This document shows positions 55 through 29,337 of a stretch of DNA of 64,000 nt, piece after piece (the stretch's first letter is position 1; each line of letters opens with the position of its first letter). The position numbers and the translations under genes were made by a program. The notes beneath the pieces were generated by a model. It made no database searches, had not been told where the DNA came from, and saw nothing but the letters and a program-made list of their open reading frames with translations. The stretch lies in the NCBI RefSeq assembly GCF_056746865.1, contig NZ_CM163382.1; one strand, written 5' to 3'.

Positions 55-1569
55 TTAATCCTTCAATCCCAGACGTTTCGCCAGCCGATGCAGGTTGGCG
101 ACGTCAGTTTCCAGCATTCGCGCGCAGGCAGCCCAGTTGTGATGATTTTGTGCCAGTGCCTGGCGAATGGTTTCACGCTGGAACGCTTCTGTCGCTTCAC
201 GAAGATTTTGCTTAACAACGGGCACCGCCGCTGCTTCTGGCGGCGGCAACGTCACATCAGGAAAAGCAAAATGTTGCGCCTCAAGAATCACTTCATCGCC
301 GCTGCGGGTTGCTCTCGCCAGCACTACCGCCCGATGAATAGCATGTTCCAGTTCACGAACGTTCCCTGGAAAATTGTAGTGTTGCAGTAAATTTCGCGCT
401 CCGGCACTTAATACCACGCGGGAGAGCCCCAGCCGCAAACGACACTGCTCGCAGAAATACCCCGCCAGCAGAATGACATCATCGCCCCGCTCACGCAGCG
501 GCGGCACTGAAAGTGGAAACACGCTCAGGCGATGAAACAAATCGGCGCGAAATCGCCCTGCCAGTACCTCTTCCCGTAAGTCACGGTTAGTCGCCGCCAG
601 CACGCGCACATCGACCCGCAAACTGCGGTCATCGCCAACACGCTGAATATCGCCATACTGCAACACTCGCAGCAACTTGGCCTGCAATGCCAACGACAAC
701 TCGCCGATCTCATCGAGAAACAGTGTGCCGTTATCCGCCATTTCAAACTTCCCGCTGCGGTTACTGATAGCGCCAGTAAACGCCCCTTTCACATGCCCGA
801 ACAGTTCACTTTCCGCCACACTTTCCGGCAGTGCGGCACAGTTGAGATAGACCAGCGGATTCACCGCCCGTGGCGAGGCTTCATGAATCGCTTTCGCCAC
901 CAGCTCCTTACCGGTTCCCGTCTCACCGCTGATCAGGACGTTGAGATCGGACGCCGCCACAATCTCAATCTCTTTTTTCAATTGCGTCATGCCTGGCGAC
1001 AAGCCAATCATCTGCGTCTGTTTCACCGCTTCAAACGGCGCGGCATCGCCCGGCAGCATATTCTGGCTTTCCAGTTGCTCAATCAGCAACGCATTGCTTA
1101 ACGCTCCCGCCGCCAGCGCGGCAATCAGGCGTAACTCTTCGTCGCTGAAAACATCGAACTGATCGGGCTGCATCCCGTCGAGCGTCAATGCGCCGATCAG
1201 GTTTTGCCCGGCAAACAATGGCAGACCAACGCAGGCGTGAACCTTCAGACTCTCCTGCCCGGGAATCAAACCGTCATAGGGATCGGGCAATTCGCTGTCT
1301 GCGGGAAAGCGCACCACGTCCCCGGCGCGGGCAATCGCTTCCAGCCGTGGATGCCCTTCCAGCGCAAAGCGTCTACCGAGTACATCCTTTGCCAGCCCGT
1401 CGATGGCAAGCGGAATAAACTGCCGCGAGTCGTAACGCAGCAATGCAGACGCATCGCACTCCAGCACCTGACGCAGCGTGGTGATCAGGCGCTGAAAACG
1501 ATCCTGATGACCAATCCCACGCTGCAATTCGATGGCGATATTCGCCAGCACATCAACGGAAAAACTCAT
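55..1569 (-). CDS. norR: NorR, sigma54-dependent NO-responsive transcriptional activator
   Basis: 504-aa ORF; AAA+ sigma54-activator motifs GETGTGKE and GAFTGA; divergent from norVW; matches E. coli NorR by recall. Confidence 0.95.
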
Positions 1570-1755: not shown

Positions 1756-3195
1756 ATGTCTATTGTGGTGAAAAATAACATTCATTGGGTTGGTCAACGT
1801 GACTGGGAAGTGCGTGATTTTCACGGCACAGAATATAAAACGCTGCGCGGCAGCAGCTACAACAGCTACCTCATTCGCGAAGAAAAAAACGTACTGATCG
1901 ACACCGTCGACCATAAATTCAGCCGCGAATTTGTGCAGAACCTGCGTAATGAAATCGATCTGGCGGATATCGATTACATCGTGATTAACCATGCAGAAGA
2001 GGACCACGCCGGGGCGCTGACCGAACTGATGGCACAAATTCCCGATACGCCGATCTACTGTACAGCCAACGCTATCGACTCGATAAATGGTCATCACCAT
2101 CATCCGGAGTGGAATTTTAATGTGGTGAAAACTGGCGACACGCTGGGTATCGGCAACGGCAAACAGCTCATTTTTGTCGAAACACCAATGCTGCACTGGC
2201 CGGACAGCATGATGACTTACCTGACAGGCGACGCGGTGCTGTTCAGTAACGATGCTTTCGGTCAGCACTACTGCGACGAGCATCTGTTCAACGATGAAGT
2301 GGATCAGACGGAGCTTTTTGAGCAGTGCCAGCGTTACTACGCCAATATCCTTACGCCGTTCAGCCGCCTGGTAACGCCGAAAATTACCGAGATCCTGGGC
2401 TTTAACTTACCAGTCGATATGATAGCGACCTCTCACGGCGTGGTATGGCGCGATAACCCAACGCAAATTGTCGAGCTGTACCTGAAATGGGCGGCTGATT
2501 ATCAGGAAGACAGAATCACCATTTTCTACGACACCATGTCGAATAACACCCGCATGATGGCTGACGCTATCGCCCAGGGGATTGCGGAAACCGACCCACG
2601 CGTGGCGGTGAAAATTTTCAACGTCGCCCGAAGCGATAAAAACGAAATCCTGACCAATGTCTTCCGCTCAAAAGGCGTGCTGGTCGGCACTTCGACGATG
2701 AATAACGTGATGATGCCGAAAATCGCCGGGCTGGTGGAGGAGATGACCGGATTACGCTTTCGTAACAAACGCGCCAGTGCTTTCGGCTCTCACGGCTGGA
2801 GCGGCGGTGCGGTGGATCGTCTTTCCACGCGCCTGCAGGATGCGGGTTTCGAAATGTCGCTTAGCCTGAAAGCCAAATGGCGACCGGACCAGGACGCTCT
2901 GGAGCTATGTCGTGAACACGGTCGCGAAATCGCCCGTCAGTGGGCGCTCGCGCCGCTGCCGCAGAGCACGGTGAATACGGTGGTTAAAGAAGAAACCTCT
3001 GCCACCACGACGGCTGACCTCGGCCCACGGATGCAGTGCAGCGTCTGCCAGTGGATTTACGATCCGGCAAAAGGCGAGCCAATGCAGGACGTTGCGCCAG
3101 GAACGCCGTGGAGTGAAGTCCCGGATAACTTCCTGTGCCCGGAATGCTCCCTTGGCAAAGACGTCTTTGACGAACTGGCATCGGAGGCAAAATGA
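1756..3195 (+). CDS. norV: anaerobic nitric oxide reductase flavorubredoxin
   Basis: 479-aa ORF; flavodiiron-type N-terminus plus C-terminal rubredoxin CxxC...CPxC (CSVCQWIYD...CPECS). Confidence 0.95.
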
Positions 3196-4325
3196 GCAAC
3201 GGCATTGTGATCATTGGTTCGGGCTTCGCCGCCCGCCAACTGGTGAAAAATATTCGCAAACAGGACGCCTGTATTCCATTAACCCTGATTGCCGCCGACA
3301 GCATGGATGAGTACAACAAACCGGACCTCAGCCATGTTATCAGCCAGAGGCAACGTGCCGATGACCTTACCCGCCAGACGGCGGGTGAATTTGCCGAGCA
3401 GTTTAATCTGCACCTGTTTCCGCACACCTGGATAATGGATATCGATGCCGAAGCCCATGTGGTGAAAAGCCAGAATAATCAGTGGCAATACGACAAGCTG
3501 GTGCTGGCAACTGGTGCCAGTGCCTTTGTCCCGCCAGTGCCTGGGCGTGAGTTAATGCTGACGTTAAATAGTCAGCAAGAGTATCGCGCCTGTGAAACGC
3601 AACTGCGGGATGCCCGACGCGTGTTGATTGTTGGCGGTGGCTTGATTGGTAGCGAACTGGCGATGGATTTTTGTCGTGCAGGCAAAGCGGTCACGCTAAT
3701 CGACAACGCTGCCAGTATTCTGGCGTCGTTAATGCCACCGGAAGTAAGCAGCCGCTTGCAGCATCGGTTGACGGAGATGGGCGTTCATCTGCTGTTGAAA
3801 TCTCAGTTGCAGGGGCTGGAAAAAACGGATTCTGGCATTCTGGCAACGCTGGACCGCCAGCGCAGCATCGAAGTGGATGCGGTAATTGCCGCCACCGGAC
3901 TGCGCCCGGAAACCGCCCTGGCACGACGCGCCGGGCTGACGATTAATCGCGGCGTTTGCGTCGATAGTTATCTGCAAACCAGTAATGCCGATATTTATGC
4001 GCTGGGCGATTGCACGGAAATTAACGGTCAGGTATTGCCGTTCCTCCAGCCGATTCAACTTAGCGCGATGGTGCTGGCAAAAAATCTTCTCGGCAATAAC
4101 ACGCCGCTGAAACTCCCTGCGATGCTGGTGAAAATCAAAACGCCAGAATTACCGCTGCATCTGGCAGGCGAAACCCAGCGTCAGGATTTACGCTGGCAAA
4201 TTAATACCGAACGCCAGGGAATGGTGGCGCGCGGTGTTGATGATGCCGACCAGCTTCGCGCCTTTGTGGTCAGTGAGGATCGGATGAAAGAGGCGTTTGG
4301 ATTGTTGAAAACGTTGCCGGTGTAG
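3192..4325 (+). CDS. norW: NADH:flavorubredoxin oxidoreductase
   Basis: 377-aa ORF overlapping the norV stop; N-terminal FAD/NAD fold GSGFAA, second dinucleotide motif GGGLIGSE. Confidence 0.95.
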
Positions 4326-11789: not shown

Positions 11790-12260
11790 CTACTCTTCTT
11801 CCACCGCTAACTGTGCGAAGCCGCCATTCCCTTCCCAGCCTTCCAGCCGTTGATAAACGGTTTCTACGGCGTCTTTAATCGGCTGGGTCATCGGGTAGTA
11901 AAAGCCGACGATATCCGGCTGGATGCCGAGGAAAATCACTTCGCCAATATCTTCTTTTAACTGGTCGATAAGGTAGTTCAGCGGCATGTTATGGGTAGTC
12001 ATCATAAACATCTCGGCGATGTCATCCGGGTCGATGATGCGGATCTCGCCGGGGTTTAGCCCCATATCCGTGGCGTCGACAATCAGCAGTCGTGTCGGGC
12101 GCAGTTCGCGGATAGCGACAATGTCGTTTTCCGGTGCGCTACCGCCGTCAATCACCACCCAGTTACCTTTCGGCGCGGCGGCGCACTTTTCCGCCAGCAG
12201 CGGGCCTGCGCCATCATCGCCCATCATGCTATTGCCAACACAGAGTAAAACGTCAGTCAC
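11790..12260 (-). CDS. hycI: hydrogenase 3 maturation endopeptidase
   Basis: 156-aa ORF at the distal end of the hyc operon. Confidence 0.9.
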   Translation of the reverse strand: MTDVLLCVGNSMMGDDGAGPLLAEKCAAAPKGNWVVIDGGSAPENDIVAIRELRPTRLLIVDATDMGLNPGEIRIIDPDDIAEMFMMTTHNMPLNYLIDQLKEDIGEVIFLGIQPDIVGFYYPMTQPIKDAVETVYQRLEGWEGNGGFAQLAVEEE

Positions 12261-12663
12261 GCAATCTCCTCACCATCAAATAGATGGCGTTTTCCTGATG
12301 AATATCATGCAGCATACTTAACAGCATTGTACTCCATTCTTTCTGCTGCGAAGTTTGCGTTGCCCGGGCTTTATCGAATGCGTTGGCCAGCATCGGCACA
12401 TGGTTAATGTCGATGACGATCTCACCATATTTCGGCACGCCTTCCATTTTGCGGCGGGCTTCGCTGCCCGCCTCCAGAGTGGCAATCCATGCCAGATATT
12501 CATCCCACGGGCAGGTGAGCGCCGCTTCCAGGCAATCGATAACCCCAAGGTGGTGACCAATCGCCAGGCTGTAATAGACCACCTGCTGCGCCTCGGCGGG
12601 CGTGGCATCGTTCTCATCAATAAATTTACGGCTCAGTTGACTGAACACCACCTTTTCACTCAT
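12253..12663 (-). CDS. hycH: formate hydrogenlyase maturation protein
   Basis: 136-aa ORF overlapping hycI and hycG. Confidence 0.9.
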
Positions 12664-13427
12664 CGGATACGCGCCTCTTCAACAACATGATTCAGATGGC
12701 TGACAATCTCGTTCAGACGCGGATCGTTTTCCGCTTCCAGCCAGCGTGCAACCTGCTCTTCGCCCTGCCCTAACTGTGTCAGGAAGTCATCGGCAATCTG
12801 GCGACCGTAACGGTAACCCGCCAGGCGGCGTGCTTCGCGATCTACTTTCACACGCAGCGGCTGCACCATATCGCCATGCAGGATCTCCGCCGGTTGTTCA
12901 TCCTGCTCACCCGGCCCACGGGCGTGAATTTTCTGCTCCAGCAGGCCGAGCGCCATTGCAAAGCCGTATAGCGTAGCGGCAGGCGTTGGCGGGCAGCCCG
13001 GAATGTAGACATCCACCGGGACGATTTTATCCGTACCGCCCCACACGCAGTAGAGATCGTGGAAAATGCCACCGCTGTTACCGCAGGCACCGTAGGAGAT
13101 ACAGATTTTCGGGTCCGGCGCGGACTGCCACGCACGCAGCGCAGGGGATCGCATTGCACGGGTGACCGCGCCGGTAAACAGTAAAATATCCGCATGACGC
13201 GGTGAAGGAACGACTTTAATGCCGAAGCGTTCTGCATCGAACAGCGGCGACAAAGTGGCGAAAATTTCGATTTCGCAGCCGTTGCAGCCGCCGCAGTCCA
13301 CGCGGTAAACGTAGGCAGAACGTTTGATTTTTTTCAGTAACGACGCCTTCATGCTGGCGATGGATTCATCCACCGTCATCGGGACCGGAATGCCGTTGGC
13401 GTCACGGGGGCCTAATAAATTGCTCAT
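12660..13427 (-). CDS. hycG: hydrogenase 3 small subunit (NuoB-like)
   Basis: 255-aa ORF; conserved Cys ligands ([14 protein letters not shown]). Confidence 0.9.
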
Positions 13428-13969
13428 CAGATGGCCTCTTTCATATGGCGAGTCAGTTCAATACGGTCGGACGGCACCAGGCATTTCTGGCGCTTACATT
13501 CCGGGCAAGTCTCAAAGCTTTCGCGGTGGTTTTCCGCGCGACTGTCACCATTGTGCTTAAGCAGTGCAATGGCGTAGTCGATCTCTTTCTGGACGGCGAA
13601 AGGACGATTACAGATGCGGCAGTTACACAGCGCGAAACGGGACTGTTGCAGGAAGTCTTCTTTCTTCCACACCGCCAGTTCGTACTCTTGCGACAGTTTG
13701 ATCGCCGCCGTCGGGCAGACTTCTTCGCAGCGTCCACAGAAGATGCAGCGTCCAAGATTGAACTCCCAGGCAAGCTCTCCTGTGGCGAGGTCGGTTTCAA
13801 CCGTTAAGGCGTTTGACGGGCAGGCATTGACGCAGGCCGCGCAGCCGATGCACTGCTGCGGGTTCTGCTCTGGCTTACCACGGAAGTTTTTATCAACCGC
13901 AATCGGCTCCAGCGGATAAGACGAGGTCGCCGTGCCGGTTTTGATGACTTTTTTGATAAAGGTAAACAT
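13427..13969 (-). CDS. hycF: formate hydrogenlyase iron-sulfur subunit
   Basis: 180-aa ORF with two CxxCxxCxxxCP motifs. Confidence 0.9.
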
Positions 13970-13978
13970 GGCGATTCC

Positions 13979-15688
13979 TTATTTCAGCGGCGAGTTTTTA
14001 CGCTCAATGCTGTAACGCTCGAGTTCTTTGTACGGCACCACTTTGCTCTTCTTCTTACGTACATCGACCACGGTCATGCGGTCGGTACAGGAGTAGCAAG
14101 GGTCCAGGCTACCGATAATCAGCGGCGCATCGGAAACAGTGTTGCCACGCAGCATGTAGCGCAGGGTCGGCCAGTTCGCGTAGGTCGCGGCACGGCAGCG
14201 CCAGCGGTACAGCTTCTGGTTGTCGCCGGTCATGCTCCAGTGGATATCGTCGCCGCGCGGCGCTTCGGCAAAGCCCAGCGCAAAACGGTGCGGAATATAG
14301 GTAAAGCCTTCCACCATCAGCGGACCGCCCGGCAGGTTATCCAGACCGTAGTCGATCATGTTCAGCGCGGTATAGACTTCGTTGATACGAACTTTCAGAC
14401 GGGAAATAACGTCGCAGCCCTGCTCGCTGTGGACTTCCATTGGCAGCAGGCCATAACCAACAAACGGGTGATCGGCGCGGGTATCGCGAGCGTGTCCGCT
14501 GGCGCGGACCATCGGGCCAACGTTACTGAAGTCGCGGGCAATTTCCGGGTCCAGACGACCAATGCCGACGGTGCGCTGTTCCATGTTCGGTGTGCTCAGC
14601 AGCACATCCACCAGCTCCTGCACTTCACGACGCATCTGTTGTGCCAGCTGGCGGGTCTGGATCATGTCGTCTTTCAGCAGATCGCGACGAATCCCGCCGA
14701 TCAGGTTCAGGCCGTAGGTTTTACGTGCACCGGTAAGGATCTCTGCCATTTTCATGGAGGTTTCACGCACGCGGAAGAACTGCATAAAGCCGGAGTCGAA
14801 GCCGGTAAAGTGACAGGCGAGGCCGAGGTTGAGCAGATGCGAGTGCAGGCGTTCTACCTCCAGCAGAATGGCGCGGATCATCTGCGCACGTTCTGGTACC
14901 TGAATACCCATCGCGTTTTCCACCGACGTGGTGTAGGCGGTGCTGTGAGCAAAGCCGCAGATCCCGCACACACGGTCAGAGAGGAAGGTCACTTCGTTGT
15001 AACCCATGCGGGTTTCCGCCAGTTTTTCCATGCCGCGATGGACATAGAACAGGCGGTAGTCGGCGTCGATAATGTTTTCGCCATCGACGAACAGACGGAA
15101 GTGGCCCGGTTCGTCAGAAGTGACGTGCAGCGGACCAATCGGAACGACGTTGTTTTTCTTGTCGCCCAGTTCGTTGATGAACTCGTAGGTTTCAGCATCG
15201 GTAGTCGGTGCCGGACGTTGACGATAATCCATGCTGTCTTTACGCAGCGGATAAAGTTCATCCGGCCAGTCATCCGGCAGCACCAGACGACGTTCATCCG
15301 GCAGCCCTACCGGAATCAAACCGTACATATCGCGCACTTCACGCTCGCCCCATACCGCCGCCGGAACGCGCGGCGTTACGGACGGATATTCCTGTTTGTT
15401 GGCGTCAACTTCAACGCGCACGGTTATCCAGCATTTGGTGCCCTTCTCCATCGACAGCACGTAATAAACGGCGTAATGACCATTCAGTTTGCGTTCGTCG
15501 TTACCAAACAGCACCGACAGCCAGCCACCCTGCTTGTAATAGAGAAACTCCACTACTTCCGGCAGATAGTTCACCTTTACGGTGACAGTCAGCTGATCTT
15601 TGGTCTGCCAGGCGTGGTCCAGCACGACGCCCGGAAATGCCTCATTCAGCGCGGCGAGATAATGTTGACCTAATTTTTCTTCAGACAT
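13979..15688 (-). CDS. hycE: hydrogenase 3 large subunit
   Basis: 569 aa from MSEEKLGQHY; NuoCD-like; C-terminal DPCYSCTDR Ni-binding motif. Confidence 0.9.
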   Translation of the reverse strand: MSEEKLGQHYLAALNEAFPGVVLDHAWQTKDQLTVTVKVNYLPEVVEFLYYKQGGWLSVLFGNDERKLNGHYAVYYVLSMEKGTKCWITVRVEVDANKQEYPSVTPRVPAAVWGEREVRDMYGLIPVGLPDERRLVLPDDWPDELYPLRKDSMDYRQRPAPTTDAETYEFINELGDKKNNVVPIGPLHVTSDEPGHFRLFVDGENIIDADYRLFYVHRGMEKLAETRMGYNEVTFLSDRVCGICGFAHSTAYTTSVENAMGIQVPERAQMIRAILLEVERLHSHLLNLGLACHFTGFDSGFMQFFRVRETSMKMAEILTGARKTYGLNLIGGIRRDLLKDDMIQTRQLAQQMRREVQELVDVLLSTPNMEQRTVGIGRLDPEIARDFSNVGPMVRASGHARDTRADHPFVGYGLLPMEVHSEQGCDVISRLKVRINEVYTALNMIDYGLDNLPGGPLMVEGFTYIPHRFALGFAEAPRGDDIHWSMTGDNQKLYRWRCRAATYANWPTLRYMLRGNTVSDAPLIIGSLDPCYSCTDRMTVVDVRKKKSKVVPYKELERYSIERKNSPLK

Positions 15689-15705
15689 GCTCAAACTCTC
15701 TTTAA

Positions 15706-16629
15706 TCACGCCGCCAGCAAGGAGACGAACGCTAAAAATGCAAAGCCAAACCCAGCCCAGGTAATGCGCGGAGTAATATCAAGACGCAGACGGGCCATGC
15801 TGTTTTCGAACAGCGCGATAACCAGGACGCCAACCACCAGTTTGACGATGGCAATCACCAGCGCCAGCAGCAACCCACCGACGGTGAAGGTTTCCATTTG
15901 TCCCCACGGAATAAACACCCCGACGAACATCTGCAACACCACCAGCTGTTTCAGGCTGATACCCCATTTCATGACGCCAAAGCCGCTGCCGCTATACTCA
16001 GAGAGCGGACCTTCCTGCAACTCCTGCTCGGCTTCCGCCAGGTCGAACGGCAGTTTGCCCATTTCGATAAAGGTGGCGAATGCACAGGCACAAAGCGCCA
16101 GCACCAGCGGGATGCTCTGGCTCAGCGGCCAGTGATAAACGGTGTCGGTGATGTTGCTGATGTTGGTGGAACCGGCAACCTGCGCCGCAACCCACAGACC
16201 AAGCAGCAGCATCGGTTCGACCAGCACGCCAAGCATCGCTTCACGGCTCGCGCCGATAGCGGTAAACGGGCTACCGGTATCCAGACCAGAAATGGCAAAG
16301 AAGAAACGCGCGATGGCAAAGAGATACAGTAAGGTGATCAAATCGCCCAGCTGCGGCAGCGGAGAACCAACGGTCACCACCGGCAGCGCAGTAGCGATAG
16401 TCAGCATGACGCCCACCATCACATACGGCGTCAGGCGGAACACCCAGCCGGAGGCATCCGGGCCAACGCTCTGGCGGCCCAGCAGTTTGATAATGTCGCG
16501 ATACTCCTGCAACACGCCCGGCCCGCGACGGTTATGCAAGCGGGCGCGCGCCACGCGGGTTATACCGGAGAGCAGCGGCGCAACGGCAAATAACACCAGC
16601 GCCTGAATTAACGGATATAAAACACTCAT
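15706..16629 (-). CDS. hycD: formate hydrogenlyase membrane subunit (NuoH-like)
   Basis: 307-aa hydrophobic ORF. Confidence 0.9.
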   Translation of the reverse strand: MSVLYPLIQALVLFAVAPLLSGITRVARARLHNRRGPGVLQEYRDIIKLLGRQSVGPDASGWVFRLTPYVMVGVMLTIATALPVVTVGSPLPQLGDLITLLYLFAIARFFFAISGLDTGSPFTAIGASREAMLGVLVEPMLLLGLWVAAQVAGSTNISNITDTVYHWPLSQSIPLVLALCACAFATFIEMGKLPFDLAEAEQELQEGPLSEYSGSGFGVMKWGISLKQLVVLQMFVGVFIPWGQMETFTVGGLLLALVIAIVKLVVGVLVIALFENSMARLRLDITPRITWAGFGFAFLAFVSLLAA

Positions 16630-16631
16630 TC

Positions 16632-18458
16632 TCAGGCTCCTCGTGAAACAATAATCACCACCAGTACCGCCAGTTCAACCAGCGCCATCCGGCGGAACAG
16701 CAACGCACTCCCCTCGCACTGCCAGCCCGGTACCAGCGACACCGGATTCAGCCATTTGCGCAGTTTCAGCACCGGCGCAAACGCCTGTTTCACCGGCATG
16801 GCAAAACCGTGAGCAGTAATCACCATTGATTTTTCATGGTCGTAGCCGCACACCCAGGCCGCGCCGCGGGAACGCGACGGCAAACGATCGCCTTTGCAAA
16901 TCGCCATAATGATGAATGGCAGCAGCGGGCAGGCAATCAGCAGCAACGTGATCATTGGTTGAGAAACGGTGGTGTTAGCAGGCTCCAGCGGCAGAGGTAC
17001 AGCAGCAGAGAGCATCGGCAGCAGCCACGGCGCAGCAACACCGCCAATTACGCAGCAAATCGCCAGTGCCACTACGCTTACGCTCATCAGGAGCGGCGCA
17101 CAGGTGGCGTTTTCGGCTTCTTTGGTACGCGGCGCGCCGAGGAACGTGACGCCATAGACTTTCGCCATACACATCACCGCCAGCGCACCGGTAATTGCCA
17201 GACCCACTGCGAGCAGCGGCCCCAGCAGACGGGCAACAAACGCGCCACTATTGCTCAGTTTGAAGAAGGATTGATAGATAACCCATTCCCCGGCAAACCC
17301 GTTCAGCGGCGGCAGCGCCGCCATTGCCATCAGCCCGACTAACATGGCGATGGAGATAACCGGCATTTTCTTGCCAATGCCACCGAGTTTTTCGATATCG
17401 CGATGACCGGTACGGAACCAGACGCTCCCCGCCCCGAGGAACAGTACGCTTTTGAACAGGCTATGGTTAAGCAGATGGTACAGACCACCGACCAGACCAA
17501 GGGCAATCAGCGTCGGTTGTTCGAGCGCGATACCCGTTACGCCAGCGCCCAGCCCCAGCAGGATAATGCCGATATTCTCCAGGGTGTGGTAAGCCAGCAA
17601 ACGTTGGATATTATGTTCCATCAACGCATACAGACCGCCGACAAACGCGGTGATCATACCGAGCACCAGCAGCGCGATCCCCCACCACAGCGGTGCATTA
17701 CCGCCCAGCAGTGACAGGGTTAAAATGCCCAGCAGGCCAATTTTCATGACTACCGTGGAAAACAACGCGGCAGCTGGCGCAGAGGCGTTAGCATGTGCCT
17801 GCGGCACCCAGCCGTGCAGCGGAATAATCCCGGCCAGCAGGCCAAAACCAATCACACCGAGCAGCCAGATATCGGAACCGAGCGGCAGCTGTTGCATACG
17901 CATATCCAGCAGGCGCAGATCCAGCGTGCCGTAACGCTGCCACAGCAGCCAACAGGCAATCGCCAGCAGCAGAGTGCCAAGACGCCCCAGCGCAAACCAC
18001 AGTTTGCCCTCTTTGCTGTTGCTGGTAAGGAACACCGCGCACAGGGCCATGATTTCGGCCATTACCACGAACATGCCGAGGTTGCTGGCAATGACGGCGC
18101 AGACGGCGGCAGCCATCAACATATTGATCTGCAAGCCGTTGCACTTCACCTGCGCGTGGCGATGCCAGTCAATGTTATAGAGGCTGACAAACAGACCGCA
18201 CAGACCGAGCGTAATCAGCCAAATCGCGTTAAGCGGAGAGATTTGCACATCGTAGCTTACCAGCGATAGCGCACCGCTCACGCCAACCGCGCCAGTCAGT
18301 ACAGTGAAGCCCGCGGCTGCCGTATACAGACTACCCACCGCGCCGCCAATTCCGGCTATCCAGCCGCTTAGCGCCTTTTGAAAAGAAAAGAGAAATGCCA
18401 GAACAGCGGCGGCGACAAACCACGCCACGCCGCTATTGATCAGGGAAATTGCGCTCAT
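16632..18458 (-). CDS. hycC: formate hydrogenlyase membrane subunit (NuoL/antiporter-like)
   Basis: 608-aa polytopic ORF. Confidence 0.9.
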   Translation of the reverse strand: MSAISLINSGVAWFVAAAVLAFLFSFQKALSGWIAGIGGAVGSLYTAAAGFTVLTGAVGVSGALSLVSYDVQISPLNAIWLITLGLCGLFVSLYNIDWHRHAQVKCNGLQINMLMAAAVCAVIASNLGMFVVMAEIMALCAVFLTSNSKEGKLWFALGRLGTLLLAIACWLLWQRYGTLDLRLLDMRMQQLPLGSDIWLLGVIGFGLLAGIIPLHGWVPQAHANASAPAAALFSTVVMKIGLLGILTLSLLGGNAPLWWGIALLVLGMITAFVGGLYALMEHNIQRLLAYHTLENIGIILLGLGAGVTGIALEQPTLIALGLVGGLYHLLNHSLFKSVLFLGAGSVWFRTGHRDIEKLGGIGKKMPVISIAMLVGLMAMAALPPLNGFAGEWVIYQSFFKLSNSGAFVARLLGPLLAVGLAITGALAVMCMAKVYGVTFLGAPRTKEAENATCAPLLMSVSVVALAICCVIGGVAAPWLLPMLSAAVPLPLEPANTTVSQPMITLLLIACPLLPFIIMAICKGDRLPSRSRGAAWVCGYDHEKSMVITAHGFAMPVKQAFAPVLKLRKWLNPVSLVPGWQCEGSALLFRRMALVELAVLVVIIVSRGA

Positions 18459-19066
18459 TTAGCCTCTCCACTTTGAGCCTGCTGAAACAAGGTGAGATCG
18501 CCAAAGTCCGTGTTAAAGGTCAGCTCACGCTTACGTTTGCTAACGCGGGCGATATCGGTGTTATCCACCAGATGCAGGGCTTTAGTAGGGCACATCCGCA
18601 CGCAGGCCGGACCTTGTTCATCAAAACTACAAAGGTCACATTTGACGGCGATCGCGCGAATACCTGGCACCCAGTCAAGCAATGTGCTGACACGCGCCGG
18701 AGCAGGCGGTGCCGGTGGCGCTTTCGGGGTATTGGCGTTTGCCGGAATATCCAGCGGACGGCTGCCGGAAAATTCAATTGCGCCAAACGGGCAGGCGATG
18801 CCGCACAGTTTGCAGCTTACGCACAGACTTTCATTCAACTGCACGGCCCCATCAACGCGGGTGATGGCGTTAACCGGGCAGACCACCGCACAAGGCGCAT
18901 CTTCACAGTGGTGACAGAGCTGCGGCGCAGATTCTTTTTCATTGAGCATCACTCGCAGGCGCGGCATTGATTGCAGGCCGTGCTGGCGATGCGTCTCTGA
19001 ACAGGCGGCCTCACAGGTGTGGCAGCCGATACAGAGCGTGGAGTCAGCAATTACAAAACGATTCAC
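18455..19066 (-). CDS. hycB: formate hydrogenlyase 4Fe-4S subunit
   Basis: 203-aa ORF with four ferredoxin Cys clusters (CIGCHTCEAAC). Confidence 0.9.
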   Translation of the reverse strand: MNRFVIADSTLCIGCHTCEAACSETHRQHGLQSMPRLRVMLNEKESAPQLCHHCEDAPCAVVCPVNAITRVDGAVQLNESLCVSCKLCGIACPFGAIEFSGSRPLDIPANANTPKAPPAPPAPARVSTLLDWVPGIRAIAVKCDLCSFDEQGPACVRMCPTKALHLVDNTDIARVSKRKRELTFNTDFGDLTLFQQAQSGEAK

Positions 19067-19190
19067 CAGGCATTCCTCAGGTGATTGTCATTTTTGACGA
19101 AAACATGCCGATGAAATGTCATTTTCGACACTCATCGACACGCCCATCCCCAAACAGGCGTAACGCCTGCAAAACGGGCAAAGCCTCAGC

Positions 19191-19652
19191 TCATGCTGCC
19201 GGGCTTTGTCCCTTTACCAGTTGGCTTAAATTCACCGGCACATTGTTTTCAATGGCGGTGTATAAGCTGTCGTAAACGCCAGCGATTTTTTCGAGATAGT
19301 GTTCCAGAACCTGTTCGCGATCGCGGATGTTGACCTTGCCATCAATCATGCCGTCAATGCTCAGTTGCGCCTGCGCAATCCGCTGTTTGTCTTCGCCATC
19401 TTTTGTTTCGACGTAATACTCGATGGTGTGGCTGTTAAAGCCATCCGCCAGGGTGACGTAAATGCGAAAATGTTCAAAAAGGACGAAACAGAGTTCTTTG
19501 TCCGGCGCGCAGCTCATGGCGTGATGCAGGCGCGCTTTCGATAACGTGATCCCCTGAACCAGCGAATTGCAGTAGATGTGCCACTGGTCCTGTAGGCGAC
19601 GATGCCGCTGTGCGATGTAATCGGCTTTCTCGCTTATTTCCCAAATAGTCAT
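19191..19652 (-). CDS. hycA: formate hydrogenlyase regulatory protein
   Basis: 153-aa ORF, first gene of the hyc operon, divergent from hypA. Confidence 0.9.
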   Translation of the reverse strand: MTIWEISEKADYIAQRHRRLQDQWHIYCNSLVQGITLSKARLHHAMSCAPDKELCFVLFEHFRIYVTLADGFNSHTIEYYVETKDGEDKQRIAQAQLSIDGMIDGKVNIRDREQVLEHYLEKIAGVYDSLYTAIENNVPVNLSQLVKGQSPAA

Positions 19653-19863: not shown

Positions 19864-20214
19864 ATGCACGAAATAACCCTCTGCCAACGGGCACTGGAAT
19901 TGATCGAACAGCAGGCCGCAAAACACGGCGCAAAACGCGTAACTGGGGTCTGGCTCAAAATTGGCGCATTTTCTTGTGTCGAAACCAGCTCTCTTGCCTT
20001 TTGTTTTGATCTGGTTTGCCGCGGCAGCGTGGCGGAAGGTTGTAAACTGCACCTCGAAGAACAAGAGGCCGAATGCTGGTGTGAAACATGCCAACAGTAT
20101 GTGACGCTACTGACCCAGCGCGTCCGCCGCTGTCCACAGTGTCATGGTGACATGCTACAGATTGTGGCAGACGACGGTTTACAGATTCGGCGGATAGAAA
20201 TAGACCAGGAGTGA
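19864..20214 (+). CDS. hypA: hydrogenase nickel incorporation protein HypA
   Basis: 116 aa from MHEITLC; RBS gggagg; zinc motifs CETC...CPQCH. Confidence 0.9.
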   Translation: MHEITLCQRALELIEQQAAKHGAKRVTGVWLKIGAFSCVETSSLAFCFDLVCRGSVAEGCKLHLEEQEAECWCETCQQYVTLLTQRVRRCPQCHGDMLQIVADDGLQIRRIEIDQE

Positions 20215-20217
20215 GCG

Positions 20218-21090
20218 ATGTGTACAACATGCGGTTGCGGTGAAGGCAACCTGTATATCGAGGGTGATGAACATAACCCTCATTCCGCGTTTCGTAGCGC
20301 GCCATTTGCCCCGGCGGCACGCCCGAAGATGAAAATCACCGGCATTAAAACGCCTGAATTTACCCCCAGCCAGACTGAAGAAGGCGACCTGCATTACGGT
20401 CATGGCGAAGCGGGCACTCACGCGCCGGGCATGAGCCAGCGCCGGATGCTGGAAGTTGAAATTGACGTGCTGGACAAAAACAACCGTCTGGCTGAACGCA
20501 ACCGCGCGCGCTTTGCTGCCCGCAAGCAACTGGTGCTCAACCTGGTTTCCAGCCCTGGTTCCGGTAAAACCACCCTGCTGACGGAAACCTTAATGCGCCT
20601 GAAAGACAGCGTTCCGTGCGCGGTTATTGAAGGCGACCAGCAAACCGTGAACGATGCCGCACGCATTCGCGCTACCGGCACACCAGCGATTCAGGTGAAC
20701 ACCGGTAAAGGCTGCCATCTTGACGCACAGATGATTGCCGACGCCGCGCCGCGCCTGCCACTGGACGATAACGGTATTCTGTTTATCGAAAACGTTGGCA
20801 ACCTTGTATGCCCGGCGAGCTTCGATCTCGGTGAAAAACACAAAGTGGCGGTGCTTTCCGTTACCGAAGGTGAAGACAAACCGCTGAAATATCCCCATAT
20901 GTTTGCCGCCGCCTCGCTGATGCTGCTCAACAAAGTTGACCTGCTGCCGTATCTCAACTTTGACGTTGAGAAGTGCATCGCCTGCGCCCGCGAAGTCAAT
21001 CCAGAAATTGAAATCATCCTTATTTCCGCCACCAGCGGCGAAGGGATGGACCAGTGGCTGAACTGGCTGGAGACACAGCGATGTGCATAG
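20218..21090 (+). CDS. hypB: hydrogenase nickel incorporation GTPase HypB
   Basis: 290 aa; N-terminal [10 protein letters not shown] metal site; P-loop SPGSGKTT. Confidence 0.9.
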
Positions 21091-21353
21091 GCGTTCCCGG
21101 CCAGATCCGCACCATTGACGGCAACCAGGCGAAAGTCGACGTCTGCGGCATTCAGCGCGACGTCGATTTAACGTTAGTCGGCAGCTGCGATGAAAACGGT
21201 CAGCCACGCGTGGGCCAGTGGGTACTGGTTCACGTTGGCTTTGCCATGAGCGTAATTAATGAAGCCGAAGCACGCGACACTCTCGACGCCTTACAAAACA
21301 TGTTTGACGTTGAGCCGGATGTCGGTGCGCTGTTGTATGGCGAGGAAAAATAA
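21081..21353 (+). CDS. hypC: hydrogenase maturation factor HypC
   Basis: 90 aa starting MCIGVPGQI; overlaps hypB end. Confidence 0.85.
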
Positions 21354-22474
21354 TGCGTTTTGTTGATGAATATCGCGCGCCGGAACAGGTGATGCAGTTA
21401 ATTGAGCATCTGCGCGAACGTGCTTCACATCTCTCTTACACCGCCGAACGCCCTCTGCGGATTATGGAGGTGTGTGGCGGTCATACCCACGCCATTTTTA
21501 AATTCGGCCTCGACCAGTTGCTGCCGGAAAACGTTGAGTTTATCCACGGTCCCGGTTGCCCGGTGTGCGTACTGCCGATGGGCAGAATCGACACCTGCGT
21601 GGAGATTGCCAGCCATCCGGAAGTCATCTTCTGTACCTTTGGCGACGCCATGCGCGTACCAGGGAAACAGGGTTCGCTGTTACAGGCAAAGGCACGCGGT
21701 GCCGATGTGCGCATCGTTTACTCGCCGATGGATGCGTTGAAACTGGCGCAGGAGAATCCAACCCGCAAAGTGGTGTTCTTCGGCTTAGGTTTTGAAACCA
21801 CCATGCCGACGACGGCCATCACTCTGCAACAGGCGAAAGCGCGTGATGTGCAGAATTTTTACTTCTTCTGCCAGCATATTACGCTTATCCCGACGCTGCG
21901 CAGTTTGCTGGAAGAGCCGGATAACGGTATCGACGCGTTTCTTGCGCCCGGTCACGTTAGTATGGTTATCGGCACTGATGCCTATAATTTTATCGCCAGC
22001 GATTTTCATCGTCCGCTGGTGGTCGCTGGTTTCGAACCCCTTGATCTACTGCAAGGCGTGGTGATGCTGGTGGAGCAGAAAATAGCGGCCCACAGCAAGG
22101 TAGAGAATCAGTATCGTCGGGTGGTGCCGGATGCCGGTAACCTGCTGGCGCAACAGGCGATTGCCGATGTGTTCTGTGTCAACGGCGACAGCGAATGGCG
22201 CGGCTTAGGCGTGATTGAATCTTCTGGTGTACACCTGACGCCGGATTATCAACGATTCGATGCCGAAGCGCATTTCCGCCCGGCACCGCAGCAGGTCTGC
22301 GATGACCCGCGCGCACGTTGTGGCGAAGTATTAACGGGCAAATGTAAGCCGCATCAATGCCCGCTGTTTGGTAACACCTGTAATCCTCAAACCGCGTTTG
22401 GTGCGCTGATGGTTTCCTCCGAAGGAGCGTGCGCCGCGTGGTATCAGTATCGTCAGCAGGAGAGTGAAGCGTGA
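21353..22474 (+). CDS. hypD: hydrogenase maturation factor HypD
   Basis: 373 aa; CGGHTHAI and GPGCPVC motifs; taATG overlap with hypC. Confidence 0.9.
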   Translation: MRFVDEYRAPEQVMQLIEHLRERASHLSYTAERPLRIMEVCGGHTHAIFKFGLDQLLPENVEFIHGPGCPVCVLPMGRIDTCVEIASHPEVIFCTFGDAMRVPGKQGSLLQAKARGADVRIVYSPMDALKLAQENPTRKVVFFGLGFETTMPTTAITLQQAKARDVQNFYFFCQHITLIPTLRSLLEEPDNGIDAFLAPGHVSMVIGTDAYNFIASDFHRPLVVAGFEPLDLLQGVVMLVEQKIAAHSKVENQYRRVVPDAGNLLAQQAIADVFCVNGDSEWRGLGVIESSGVHLTPDYQRFDAEAHFRPAPQQVCDDPRARCGEVLTGKCKPHQCPLFGNTCNPQTAFGALMVSSEGACAAWYQYRQQESEA

Positions 22475-23481
22475 ATAATATCCAACTCGCCCACGGTAGC
22501 GGCGGCCAGGCGATGCAGCAATTAATCAACAGCCTGTTTATGGAAGCCTTTGCCAACCCGTGGCTGGCAGAGCAGGAAGATCAGGCACGTCTTGATCTGG
22601 CGCAGCTGGTAGCGGAAGGCGACCGTCTGGCGTTCTCCACCGACAGTTACGTCATTGACCCGCTGTTCTTTCCTGGCGGTAATATCGGCAAGCTGGCGAT
22701 TTGCGGCACCGCGAATGACGTTGCGGTCAGTGGCGCTATTCCGCGCTATCTCTCCTGTGGCTTTATCCTCGAAGAAGGATTGCCGATGGAGACACTGAAA
22801 GCCGTAGTGACCAGCATGGCAGAAACCGCCCGCGCGGCAGGCATTGCCATCGTCACTGGCGATACTAAAGTGGTGCAGCGCGGCGCGGCAGATAAACTGT
22901 TTATCAACACCGCTGGCATGGGCGCAATTCCGGCGAATATTCACTGGGGCGCACAGACGCTAACCGCAGGCGATGTATTGCTGGTTAGCGGTACACTCGG
23001 CGACCATGGGGCGACTATCCTTAACCTGCGTGAGCAGCTGGGGCTGGATGGCGAACTGGTCAGCGACTGTGCGGTACTAACGCCGCTTATTCAGACGCTG
23101 CGTGACATTCCCGGCGTGAAAGCGCTGCGTGATGCCACCCGTGGTGGTGTAAACGCGGTGGTACATGAGTTCGCGGCAGCCTGCGGTTGTGGTATTGAAA
23201 TTTCAGAAGCGGCACTGCCGGTTAAACCAGCCGTGCGCGGCGTTTGCGAACTGCTGGGACTGGACGCCCTTAACTTTGCCAACGAAGGCAAACTGGTGAT
23301 CGCCGTTGAACGCAACGCGGCAGAGCAAGTGCTGGCAGCGTTACATTCCCATCCACTGGGGAAAGACGCGGCGCTGATTGGTGAAGTGGTGGAACGTAAA
23401 GGTGTTCGTCTTGCCGGTCTGTATGGCGTGAAACGAACCCTCGATTTACCACACGCCGAACCGTTACCGCGTATATGCTAA
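22471..23481 (+). CDS. hypE: hydrogenase maturation carbamoyl dehydratase HypE
   Basis: 336 aa; GTG start overlapping hypD stop; AIR-synthase-like fold. Confidence 0.9.
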   Translation: MNNIQLAHGSGGQAMQQLINSLFMEAFANPWLAEQEDQARLDLAQLVAEGDRLAFSTDSYVIDPLFFPGGNIGKLAICGTANDVAVSGAIPRYLSCGFILEEGLPMETLKAVVTSMAETARAAGIAIVTGDTKVVQRGAADKLFINTAGMGAIPANIHWGAQTLTAGDVLLVSGTLGDHGATILNLREQLGLDGELVSDCAVLTPLIQTLRDIPGVKALRDATRGGVNAVVHEFAAACGCGIEISEAALPVKPAVRGVCELLGLDALNFANEGKLVIAVERNAAEQVLAALHSHPLGKDAALIGEVVERKGVRLAGLYGVKRTLDLPHAEPLPRIC

Positions 23482-25677: not shown

Positions 25678-26106
25678 ATGGCAGTTTCAGCAAGAAATCA
25701 ATTAACCGGAACGGTTAGCGCAGTAGCAATGGGCGCTGTGAATGATGAAGTAGAACTGACGCTGGCAGGTGGTGCAAAACTGGTGGCAATTGTGACTCAC
25801 AGCAGCCAGCAGGCTCTTGGTCTGGCAAAAGGGAAAGAAGCGATTGCCCTGATTAAAGCCCCGTGGGTCACGCTGGCAACGGAAGACTGTGGACTGAAAT
25901 TCTCTGCTCGCAACCAATTTGCTGGCAGCGTGTCGACAATCACCGAAGGCGCAGTGAACGCCACTGTCCATATCAAAACGGATGCGGGTTTTGAAATTGT
26001 GGCAGTGGTAACAAATGAAAGTCAGGATGAAATGAAACTCACCACTGGCTCGCGCGTTATTGCATTGATCAAAGCATCAGCCATCCTGATTGCCACCAAA
26101 GCGTAA
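25678..26106 (+). CDS. molybdate-binding protein with two tandem Mop/TOBE domains
   Basis: 142 aa from MAVSARNQLTGTV with RBS aaaggagg; two ~70-aa repeats (SARNQ...ALIKA). Confidence 0.7.
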   Translation: MAVSARNQLTGTVSAVAMGAVNDEVELTLAGGAKLVAIVTHSSQQALGLAKGKEAIALIKAPWVTLATEDCGLKFSARNQFAGSVSTITEGAVNATVHIKTDAGFEIVAVVTNESQDEMKLTTGSRVIALIKASAILIATKA

Positions 26107-26144
26107 ACGCCTTATTTGCCGGAGAGTATGGCTCTCCGGCAGAT

Positions 26145-26489
26145 TTATTTCTTTGGACGATATTTTTCTGGCAACTCCGGCACCGGACGCTTGTCATCGA
26201 TGAGATGACGCACGGTTAAGATCGGATGACGCCACAGCATTCTCGGCCCGGCCCAACGCATAATCTGTTTCATCTCTTCACGCTTTGCAGGCTGGTAACA
26301 GTGCACCGGACACTGCTTACAGGCTGGTTTCTCTTCGCCGAACACACATTTATCCAGCCGCTTTTGCGCGTAGGCAAACAGCGCGTCGTAATGCTCCGGC
26401 TCCGCTGACGCCTGCGGGCATTTCGCTTGATAAAGATCGATCATTTTTTTAATCGTCAGTTTTTCACGAGAGATACGCTTGCCGGACAT
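26145..26489 (-). CDS. ygbA: YgbA family protein (NsrR-regulon member)
   Basis: 114-aa Cys-rich ORF (CPQASAEPEH...CKQCPVHCY) at the position of E. coli ygbA. Confidence 0.8.
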   Translation of the reverse strand: MSGKRISREKLTIKKMIDLYQAKCPQASAEPEHYDALFAYAQKRLDKCVFGEEKPACKQCPVHCYQPAKREEMKQIMRWAGPRMLWRHPILTVRHLIDDKRPVPELPEKYRPKK

Positions 26490-26506
26490 GCTGCCTCCAT
26501 CTCATT

Positions 26507-26535
26507 AAGATGCATTTATATTACAACTTAATCTT
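26507..26535. promoter_or_regulatory. NsrR-box-like imperfect inverted repeat upstream of ygbA
   Basis: aagatgcatttatattacaacttaatctt about 20 bp upstream of the ygbA start. Confidence 0.4.
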
Positions 26536-26775
26536 AAAGGGCACTATGACTCTAAAGAAGAAGGGTTAGCCAACCGATACAATTTTGCGTACTTGCTTCA
26601 TAAGCATCACGCAAAAGCTGCAAAACAGCATCTTTCCCGGAATCACCATCAAGAACTCGCCGTTCGCTTCTTCCCCTGAAATGATTAACTCCGGTATCAT
26701 GTGCGCCTTATGTGATTACAACGAAAATAAAAACCATCACACCCCATTTAATATCAGGGAACCGGACATAACCCC

Positions 26776-29337
26776 ATGAGTGCAATAGAAAATTTCGATG
26801 CCCATACGCCCATGATGCAGCAGTATCTCAAGCTGAAAGCCCAGCATCCCGAGATCCTGCTGTTTTACCGGATGGGTGATTTTTATGAACTGTTTTATGA
26901 CGACGCAAAACGCGCGTCGCAACTGCTGGATATTTCACTGACCAAACGCGGTGCTTCGGCGGGAGAGCCGATCCCGATGGCGGGGATCCCCTACCATGCG
27001 GTGGAAAACTACCTCGCCAAACTGGTGAATCAGGGCGAGTCCGTTGCCATCTGCGAACAAATTGGCGATCCGGCGACCAGCAAAGGTCCGGTTGAGCGCA
27101 AAGTTGTGCGTATCGTTACGCCGGGCACCATCAGCGATGAAGCCCTGTTACAAGAGCGCCAGGACAATCTGCTGGCGGCTATCTGGCAGGACAGCAAAGG
27201 TTTCGGCTACGCGACGCTGGATATCAGTTCCGGTCGTTTTCGCCTGAGCGAACCGGCTGACCGGGAAACGATGGCGGCAGAACTGCAACGCACTAATCCG
27301 GCGGAACTGCTATATGCAGAAGATTTTGCTGAAATGTCGTTAATTGAAGGTCGTCGCGGTCTGCGCCGTCGTCCGCTGTGGGAGTTTGAAATCGACACCG
27401 CGCGCCAGCAGTTGAATCTGCAATTTGGCACCCGCGATCTGGTCGGTTTTGGCGTCGAGAACGCGCCGCGCGGACTTTGTGCTGCCGGTTGTCTGTTGCA
27501 GTATGCGAAAGATACTCAACGCACGACCCTGCCGCATATTCGTTCTATCACCATGGAACGTGAGCAGGACAGCATCATTATGGATGCCGCGACACGTCGT
27601 AACCTGGAAATTACTCAGAACCTGGCGGGCGGTGCGGAAAACACGCTGGCTTCAGTGCTCGACTGCACTGTAACGCCAATGGGTAGTCGTATGCTGAAAC
27701 GCTGGCTGCATATGCCAGTGCGCGATACCCGCGTGTTGCTTGAGCGCCAGCAAACTATTGGCGCATTGCAGGATTTCACCGCCGAGCTACAGCCGGTGCT
27801 GCGTCAGGTCGGCGACCTGGAACGTATTCTGGCACGTCTGGCTTTACGAACTGCTCGCCCACGCGATCTGGCCCGTATGCGTCACGCTTTCCAGCAACTG
27901 CCGGAGCTGCGTGCGCAGTTAGAAAATGTCGATAGCGCTCCGGTACAGGCGCTGCGTGAGAAGATGGGTGAGTTTGCCGAACTGCGCGATCTGCTGGAGC
28001 GGGCCATTATCGACACACCGCCGGTACTGGTGCGCGACGGTGGTGTTATCGCATCGGGCTATAACGAAGAGCTGGATGAGTGGCGCGCGCTGGCTGACGG
28101 CGCGACCGATTATCTGGAGCGTCTGGAAGTCCGCGAGCGTGAACGTACCGGCCTGGACACGCTGAAAGTCGGATTTAACGCGGTGCATGGTTATTACATT
28201 CAGATCAGCCGTGGACAAAGCCATCTGGCACCGATTAACTACATGCGCCGCCAGACGCTGAAAAACGCCGAACGCTACATTATTCCAGAGCTAAAAGAGT
28301 ACGAAGATAAAGTTCTCACCTCAAAAGGCAAAGCACTGGCACTGGAAAAACAGCTTTATGAAGAGCTGTTCGACCTGCTGTTGCCGCATCTGGAAGCGTT
28401 GCAACAGAGCGCAAGCGCACTGGCAGAACTTGATGTGCTGGTTAACCTGGCGGAGCGGGCCTATACCCTGAACTACACCTGCCCGACCTTCATTGATAAA
28501 CCGGGTATTCGCATCACCGAAGGCCGCCATCCGGTGGTTGAACAGGTACTGAACGAGCCATTTATCGCCAACCCGCTGAACCTGTCGCCGCAGCGTCGCA
28601 TGTTGATCATTACCGGTCCGAATATGGGCGGTAAAAGTACCTATATGCGCCAGACCGCACTGATTGCGCTGATGGCCTACATCGGCAGCTATGTACCGGC
28701 ACAAAAAGTCGAGATTGGACCTATCGATCGCATCTTTACCCGCGTAGGGGCAGCGGATGATCTGGCATCCGGGCGTTCAACCTTTATGGTGGAAATGACC
28801 GAAACCGCCAATATTTTACATAACGCCACCGAGTACAGTCTGGTGCTGATGGATGAGATTGGGCGTGGAACGTCCACTTACGATGGTCTGTCGCTGGCGT
28901 GGGCGTGCGCTGAAAATCTGGCGAATAAGATTAAGGCATTGACGTTGTTTGCTACCCATTATTTCGAGCTGACCCAGTTACCGGAGAAAATGGAAGGCGT
29001 GGCTAACGTGCATCTCGATGCACTGGAGCACGGCGACACCATTGCCTTTATGCACAGCGTGCAGGATGGCGCGGCGAGCAAAAGCTACGGCCTGGCGGTT
29101 GCAGCTCTGGCGGGCGTGCCAAAAGAGGTTATTAAGCGCGCACGGCAAAAACTGCGTGAGCTGGAAAGCATTTCGCCGAACGCCGCCGCTACGCAAGTAG
29201 ATGGTACGCAAATGTCTTTGCTGTCAGTGCCAGAAGAAACGTCGCCTGCGGTCGAAGCACTGGAAAATCTCGACCCGGATTCACTGACTCCGCGTCAGGC
29301 GCTGGAGTGGATTTATCGCTTGAAGAGTCTGGTGTAA
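26776..29337 (+). CDS. mutS: DNA mismatch repair protein MutS
   Basis: 853-aa ORF; Walker [10 protein letters not shown]. Confidence 0.95.

Follow-up and report, generated by a model that had tools for sequence, protein, structure and literature searches.

The response of NsrR to NO through its Fe-S cluster, as well as the 23-bp architecture of the sites it recognises, has been summarised previously (PMC10783083). The operators of ytfE, hcp and hmp are promoter-proximal, are derepressed by NO and share with the box upstream of ygbA the consensus AAGATGYATTT-N-AAATRCATCTT (PMC5320621, PMC10783083). With respect to ygbA itself, the gene is under NsrR control in E. coli (PMC5320621), binding of NsrR in K-12 was detected by ChIP-chip (Partridge 2009, as cited in PMC5320621), and the ygbA result of the Spiro laboratory was already mentioned in Rodionov et al. 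2005. In an nsrR mutant of Salmonella, ygbA mRNA was found to be increased 31.8-fold (PMC2884951). For E. coli CFT073 a ygbA site, AAGGTGCATTTATATTACAACTT, was predicted (PMC5320621 Table 4). The text of the same paper names ygbA as a gene strongly upregulated by nitrate-derived NO in CFT073; the gene is not named in its Table 1, and NsrR ChIP-seq in this strain gave no peak at ygbA, which the authors regard as a probable false negative (PMC5320621). The NsrR site of ygbA is already known in the literature, and the initial annotation of the DNA analysed here, which had named ygbA as a known NsrR target, agrees with both the published site in CFT073 and the ChIP-chip in K-12 (PMC5320621).

For the present analysis, the literature was the source for the binding of NsrR in K-12, for the derepression caused by nsrR mutation and by NO or nitrate, and for the Fe-S/NO chemistry. 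The identity and significance of the motif, its conservation, the TAnnnT element within it and the presence of nsrR were computed here.

The ygbA locus and its surroundings

The window, i.e., the whole stretch of 64,000 nucleotides that was analysed, was found to be E. coli chromosome, and the 1.2-kb segment around the site is 100% identical to strain 118UI as well as to others. The annotation of 118UI was transferred 1:1 to window coordinates and gave the following gene map:

55–1569, minus strand: norR
1756–4325, plus strand: norV and norW
listed between norVW and hycI-A: hypF, hydN and ascGFB
11790–19652, minus strand: hycI-A
19864–23481, plus strand: hypA-E
listed between hypA-E and the TOBE-domain gene: fhlA
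25678–26106, plus strand: TOBE-domain gene
26145–26489, minus strand: ygbA, the regulated gene, coding for a Cys-rich protein of 114 aa of the YgbA_NO family (from the list of open reading frames and PF11756; annotated as ygbA in strain 118UI)
26776–29337, plus strand: mutS

The YgbA protein matches the YgbA_NO family (PF11756) over residues 4–106 of its 114, with E = 4.2e-41 and 140 bits, which is above the gathering score (cut-off 25). The gene located between fhlA and ygbA (25678–26106, plus strand) encodes two TOBE domains (PF03459, molybdate-binding type) and is missing from K-12. Coverage of the segment 25600–26800 reaches 80% or more in no more than 1888 of the 5420 complete E. coli genomes. 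The YgbA found beside the TOBE gene has 114 aa, compared with 117 aa in K-12 (ending ...KKPHE).

The intergenic region between ygbA and mutS (26470–26775) is unevenly conserved. Its ygbA-proximal 131 bp fall to 85% identity within E. coli, with about 45% of genomes in the 80–90% band, and its mutS-proximal part (26640–26775) is nearly invariant, even in comparison with E. albertii, presumably because of the promoter and leader of mutS. The same region holds an open reading frame of 44 aa (26566–26700, minus strand), which PGAP annotates as "hypothetical protein". No Pfam family matches its product, strains differ in its length (44 or 59 aa), some of them have it frameshifted or lack an annotation for it, and a genuine gene is improbable here. 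Within this frame, a perfect inverted repeat of 8 bp (TTTTGCGT/ACGCAAAA, at 26583–26590 and 26609–26616) and a terminator-like hairpin (26629–26617, minus strand) were also noted.

Strength and register of the NsrR box

The initial annotation had described positions 26507–26535 as an NsrR-box-like imperfect inverted repeat about 20 bp upstream of ygbA. The 29 bases quoted there match the window exactly, the distance to the start codon of ygbA on the minus strand was measured as 17 nt, and the inverted repeat is indeed present. A repeat search returned arms at 26505–26520 and 26522–26537 with 75% complementarity, and 10 of the 14 pairs of the 29-mer are complementary. Palindromy alone is near chance level, with at least 10 of 14 pairs at 34 positions of the window; at least 12 of 16 pairs occur at 8 positions, vs 2.6 expected from simulations. 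The features assigned to the site and its vicinity are as follows:

26507–26529, no strand: very probable NsrR operator, a 23-bp 11-1-11 inverted repeat, AAGATGCATTT-A-TATTACAACTT (from the matrix, the consensus, the published site and conservation in 80 loci)
26507–26517, no strand: promoter-proximal half-site AAGATGCATTT, 11/11 consensus, 16.1 bits
26519–26529, no strand: promoter-distal half-site TATTACAACTT, reverse complement AAGTTGTAATA, 7/11 consensus, 7.4 bits
26518–26523, minus strand: likely sigma-70 -10 hexamer TAATAT, box positions 7–12 on the ygbA coding strand (from conservation)
26541–26546, minus strand: putative weak -35 hexamer TAGTGC, 17 bp upstream of the -10 (from a small conserved patch)
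26511, minus strand: predicted transcription start, an A, 7 nt past the -10 (placed by geometry from the position of the -10 only)
26494–26498, minus strand: Shine-Dalgarno sequence GGAGG of ygbA, 4 nt ahead of the ATG (read directly from the sequence)

An NsrR motif scan, which had been proposed as a check in the initial annotation, was performed with a symmetric weight matrix built from 24 published 11-1-11 sites (PMC5320621 Table 4), from which the ygbA and hycB sites were excluded. The ygbA site ranked first among the ~64,000 positions of the window with 23.7 bits, and the 24 sites used to build the matrix score themselves between 12.4 and 32.4 bits. The exact tail probability at 23.7 bits is P = 5e-9 per position, or 0.0003 expected matches per 64 kb and 0.03 per genome. 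Furthermore, in 200 simulated windows (first-order Markov) the top score was 20.8 bits and none reached 23.7. Positions 26507–26529 deviate from the NsrR consensus by 3 mismatches at the 22 specified positions, a match that is unique in the window, and the 23-bp site exceeds the published 11-1-11 threshold. Position 5 is T in both half-sites (AAGATGCATTT and the reverse-complemented AAGTTGTAATA), and T5 of NsrR half-sites has been reported to be important (PMC10783083).

The runner-up of the matrix scan, with 13.6 bits, is positioned at 19102–19124 in the gap between hycA and hycB, 36 nt upstream of the hycB start, and its sequence is that of the published, ChIP-seq-positive hycB site (reverse complement AAATGACATTTCATCGGCATGTT). 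Both published NsrR sites are the top two matches of a matrix that was not trained on them, which constitutes a clean positive control for motif scanning. The hycB site has its motif family in common with the ygbA box, but it is a much weaker match and, unlike ygbA, hycB is down-regulated and not induced under nitrate/NO conditions (PMC5320621). NsrR ChIP peaks have been described in CFT073 at hycB and at hycA/hypA, and under nitrate the expression of those hyc/hyp genes goes down to 0.01-fold and 0.05-fold (PMC5320621). The initial annotation had placed three NO-responsive units in the first half of the window. All three (norR/norVW, ygbA and hyc/hyp) are located there; however, hyc/hyp is bound by NsrR but lowered by nitrate, so its NO responsiveness is based on binding, and "NO-responsive" is a weaker description for this unit.

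In the intergenic region between norR and norV (1570–1755), three NorR-type boxes of the form GTCA-N3-TGAC (GT-N7-AC) were observed at 1582–1592, 1603–1613 and 1627–1637, together with the sigma-54 promoter of norV (TGGCAC-N5-CTGCA) at 1693–1708. A weak matrix match at 1690–1712 (9.9 bits) was rejected as an NsrR site, as it corresponds to this sigma-54 promoter.

The register of the ygbA box was also considered. The NsrR register is centred on 26518, which is 3 bp to the left of the centre implied by the initial annotation (26521). The six bases AATCTT at 26530–26535 carry 0.28 bits per column across genera, and other lineages of E. coli have AATTTG or AATTTT in this arm. Since they are unconserved, these bases fall outside the site and the coordinates were trimmed to 26507–26529. 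Thus, the NsrR reading of the initial annotation stands, while its boundaries were 6 bp too long and its symmetry axis was not that of NsrR. The register of the 29-nt palindrome was rejected as a functional unit, given its chance-level palindromy without conservation. A palindrome of 29–31 nt centred on 26521 (TTAAGAT...ATCTTAA) might nevertheless be the site of some other dimeric regulator (Fur, FNR, IscR or NarL/P) or form an RNA/DNA hairpin, as it reaches 12 of 16 pairs in the window vs 10 of 16 for the NsrR register. This register falls to 5.2 of 14 pairs in the orthologues, however, and its outer arm, with the 0.28 bits mentioned above, varies even within E. coli, which makes such a reading barely conceivable. 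Candidate sites for Fur, FNR, IscR type 1 and 2 and NarL/P over the same DNA were rejected, their consensus matches being at chance level. Likewise rejected were an RNA hairpin or attenuator, for which the fold has -10.4 kcal/mol (z = -1.95), a stability also reached by 12 of 200 shuffles, and a known RNA family, with no Rfam match in 26000–27000.

Conservation across enterobacteria and the promoter embedded in the box

A scan with the YgbA protein, limited to one genome per species, provided 80 loci from about 25 genera, including Escherichia, Citrobacter, Salmonella, Enterobacter, Klebsiella, Raoultella, Kluyvera, Lelliottia, Leclercia, Pluralibacter, Hafnia, Rahnella and others. In all 80 loci the top matrix match within 200 nt upstream of ygbA was found at the homologous position, 12–22 nt ahead of the ATG, with one at 41 nt. 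The orthologous boxes score at least 14 bits in 72 and at least 18 bits in 60 of the 80 loci. In addition, the box is the top match of the entire ~3.3-kb locus in 79 of 80, with a mean of 20.2 bits vs 7.0 bits for the next best. When the 120 nt upstream of ygbA were aligned with MAFFT, the box stood out sharply with 1.40 bits per column, compared with 0.29 for the upstream flank and 0.49 for the stretch between box and ATG.

On the coding strand the orthologous boxes take the form AAGnTG-TAttAT-nAATGCAnCTT. Positions 15–19 and 22–23, which belong to the proximal half, carry 1.4–2.0 bits across genera, and in the distal half positions 1, 2, 6 and 8 (A, A, G, A) are 97–100% conserved. The mean half-site scores across genera are 11.8 bits for the proximal and 7.6 bits for the distal half. 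Concerning the regulator, nsrR itself lies outside the window, and of 5426 complete E. coli genomes, 5425 have a match to the K-12 gene with at least 95% identity. The three bases past the box on the coding strand (26504–26506, consensus CTT-AAT) are moderately conserved across genera and lie outside the 23-bp NsrR motif; their conservation may reflect the initial transcribed sequence or an extended contact of the repressor.

A second signal appears to be embedded in the box. The pattern TAnnnT is present at box positions 7–12 in 80 of 80 orthologues, with A at position 11 in 99% of them, vs T in the NsrR consensus, and T at position 12, an unconstrained spacer for NsrR, in 100%. The invariants at positions 11 and 12 are not explained by NsrR and are explained by a sigma-70 hexamer, thus pointing to a -10 element TAATAT at 26523–26518. 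Judging from the sequence, the TAnnnT of the distal half-site is likely the -10 element of ygbA. The end of the site lies the same 17 nt upstream of the ATG, and the invariant TAnnnT suggests that the box overlaps the core promoter elements. The degenerate distal half, and with it the asymmetry of the ygbA box, would be due to this half doubling as the -10 hexamer. A candidate -35 is seen as a small patch at 26546–26541, where the consensus is TTG, the third-position G is best conserved and the 17-bp spacing is fixed. A simple promoter scan returned no consensus sigma-70 promoter in 26400–26800, and therefore the promoter assignment rests on conservation. A search of the full-text literature and of the ROSE supplement yielded no experimental transcription start for ygbA.

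Given the invariant TAnnnT, and given the CFT073 ChIP-seq data without an NsrR peak at ygbA (PMC5320621), it could be proposed that the conserved island is nothing else than the core sigma-70 promoter of ygbA (-10, discriminator and start site), its likeness to an NsrR box being coincidental. Such a promoter would leave unexplained the AATGCAnCTT downstream and the AA and G upstream of the -10. The 23-mer fits a matrix learned from unrelated loci at the P = 5e-9 given above, and both NsrR-dependent regulation and ChIP-chip binding have been reported (PMC5320621, PMC2884951). We therefore regard coincidence as highly improbable. High conservation is seen on both sides of the hexamer, at positions 1, 2 and 6 (upstream) and 15–23 (downstream), which fit the NsrR motif, not promoter function.

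A different view would be that NsrR recognises essentially the proximal 11-bp half-site only (26507–26517), and that the distal half is a -10 with little role in binding. Single 11-bp motifs have been accepted as functional (PMC5320621; proposed by Partridge et al. 2009), and the proximal half is the stronger one both in the window (16.1 vs 7.4 bits) and on average across genera (11.8 vs 7.6 bits). Yet the A, A and G at positions 1, 2 and 6 of the distal half lie outside the -10 and are not needed by sigma-70, and they show the 97–100% conservation already mentioned; moreover, it is the 23-bp site as a whole that lies above the published 11-1-11 threshold. Recognition of the proximal half alone thus seems unlikely to us, although it is the more serious objection to a full 11-1-11 operator.

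Operator alleles and the regulation of ygbA by nitric oxide

Taken as a whole, the evidence makes it very probable that 26507–26529 is the operator through which NsrR controls ygbA, with a likely -10 element embedded in it. A dimer of holo-NsrR, an Rrf2-family iron-sulfur repressor that senses NO, would bind the 11-1-11 inverted repeat. With the start of transcription predicted near 26511, the box would extend from about -18 to +5, and the bound repressor would be expected to occlude the -10 and the start site, so that RNA polymerase could form no open complex. NO would then nitrosylate the Fe-S cluster, NsrR would lose its affinity for DNA, and its release would allow ygbA to be transcribed. 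In comparison with the other NsrR operators, the ytfE site is a perfect palindrome (32.4 bits), whereas the two halves at ygbA are unequal (16.1 + 7.4 bits).

The ygbA sites of CFT073 and K-12 are found at the same locus and agree with the one in the window in their 23-bp architecture and in their placement with respect to ygbA (Bodenmiller & Spiro 2006; Partridge et al. 2009; Mehta et al. 2015, PMC5320621). The CFT073 site differs from the window allele, AAGATGCATTTATATTACAACTT, by one base, namely at position 4 (A here, G in CFT073), and the K-12 site, AAGATGTATTTATATTACATCTT, differs from it by two, at positions 7 and 20. Among E. coli records, identity over the 131 bp spanning the box lies between 100% and 84.8%, and 2459 of 5393 records are in the 80–90% band. 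Four E. coli alleles of the box were distinguished, which differ from one another at degenerate positions alone (4, 7 and 20) and score 23.7 (window), 23.3, 22.3 and 21.6 bits. The window allele is common to O157:H7 and has the perfect-consensus proximal half; its box sequence is printed in no paper found by a literature search for box sequences.

The locus indicates that a reader of the sequence alone is able to recognise a textbook NO-stress operator, and in this respect it adds little that is new. The modest additions are the evidence from many genera for a dual role of the distal half, as half-site and as likely -10, and the catalogue of the four E. coli operator alleles. Finally, the alleles could set lineage-specific NsrR occupancy and, with it, NO thresholds for the induction of ygbA, a suggestion that we consider speculative and rather unlikely. 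If it were true, the "false negative" of the CFT073 ChIP-seq would be a real biological difference, related to the CFT073-type allele with G at position 4.
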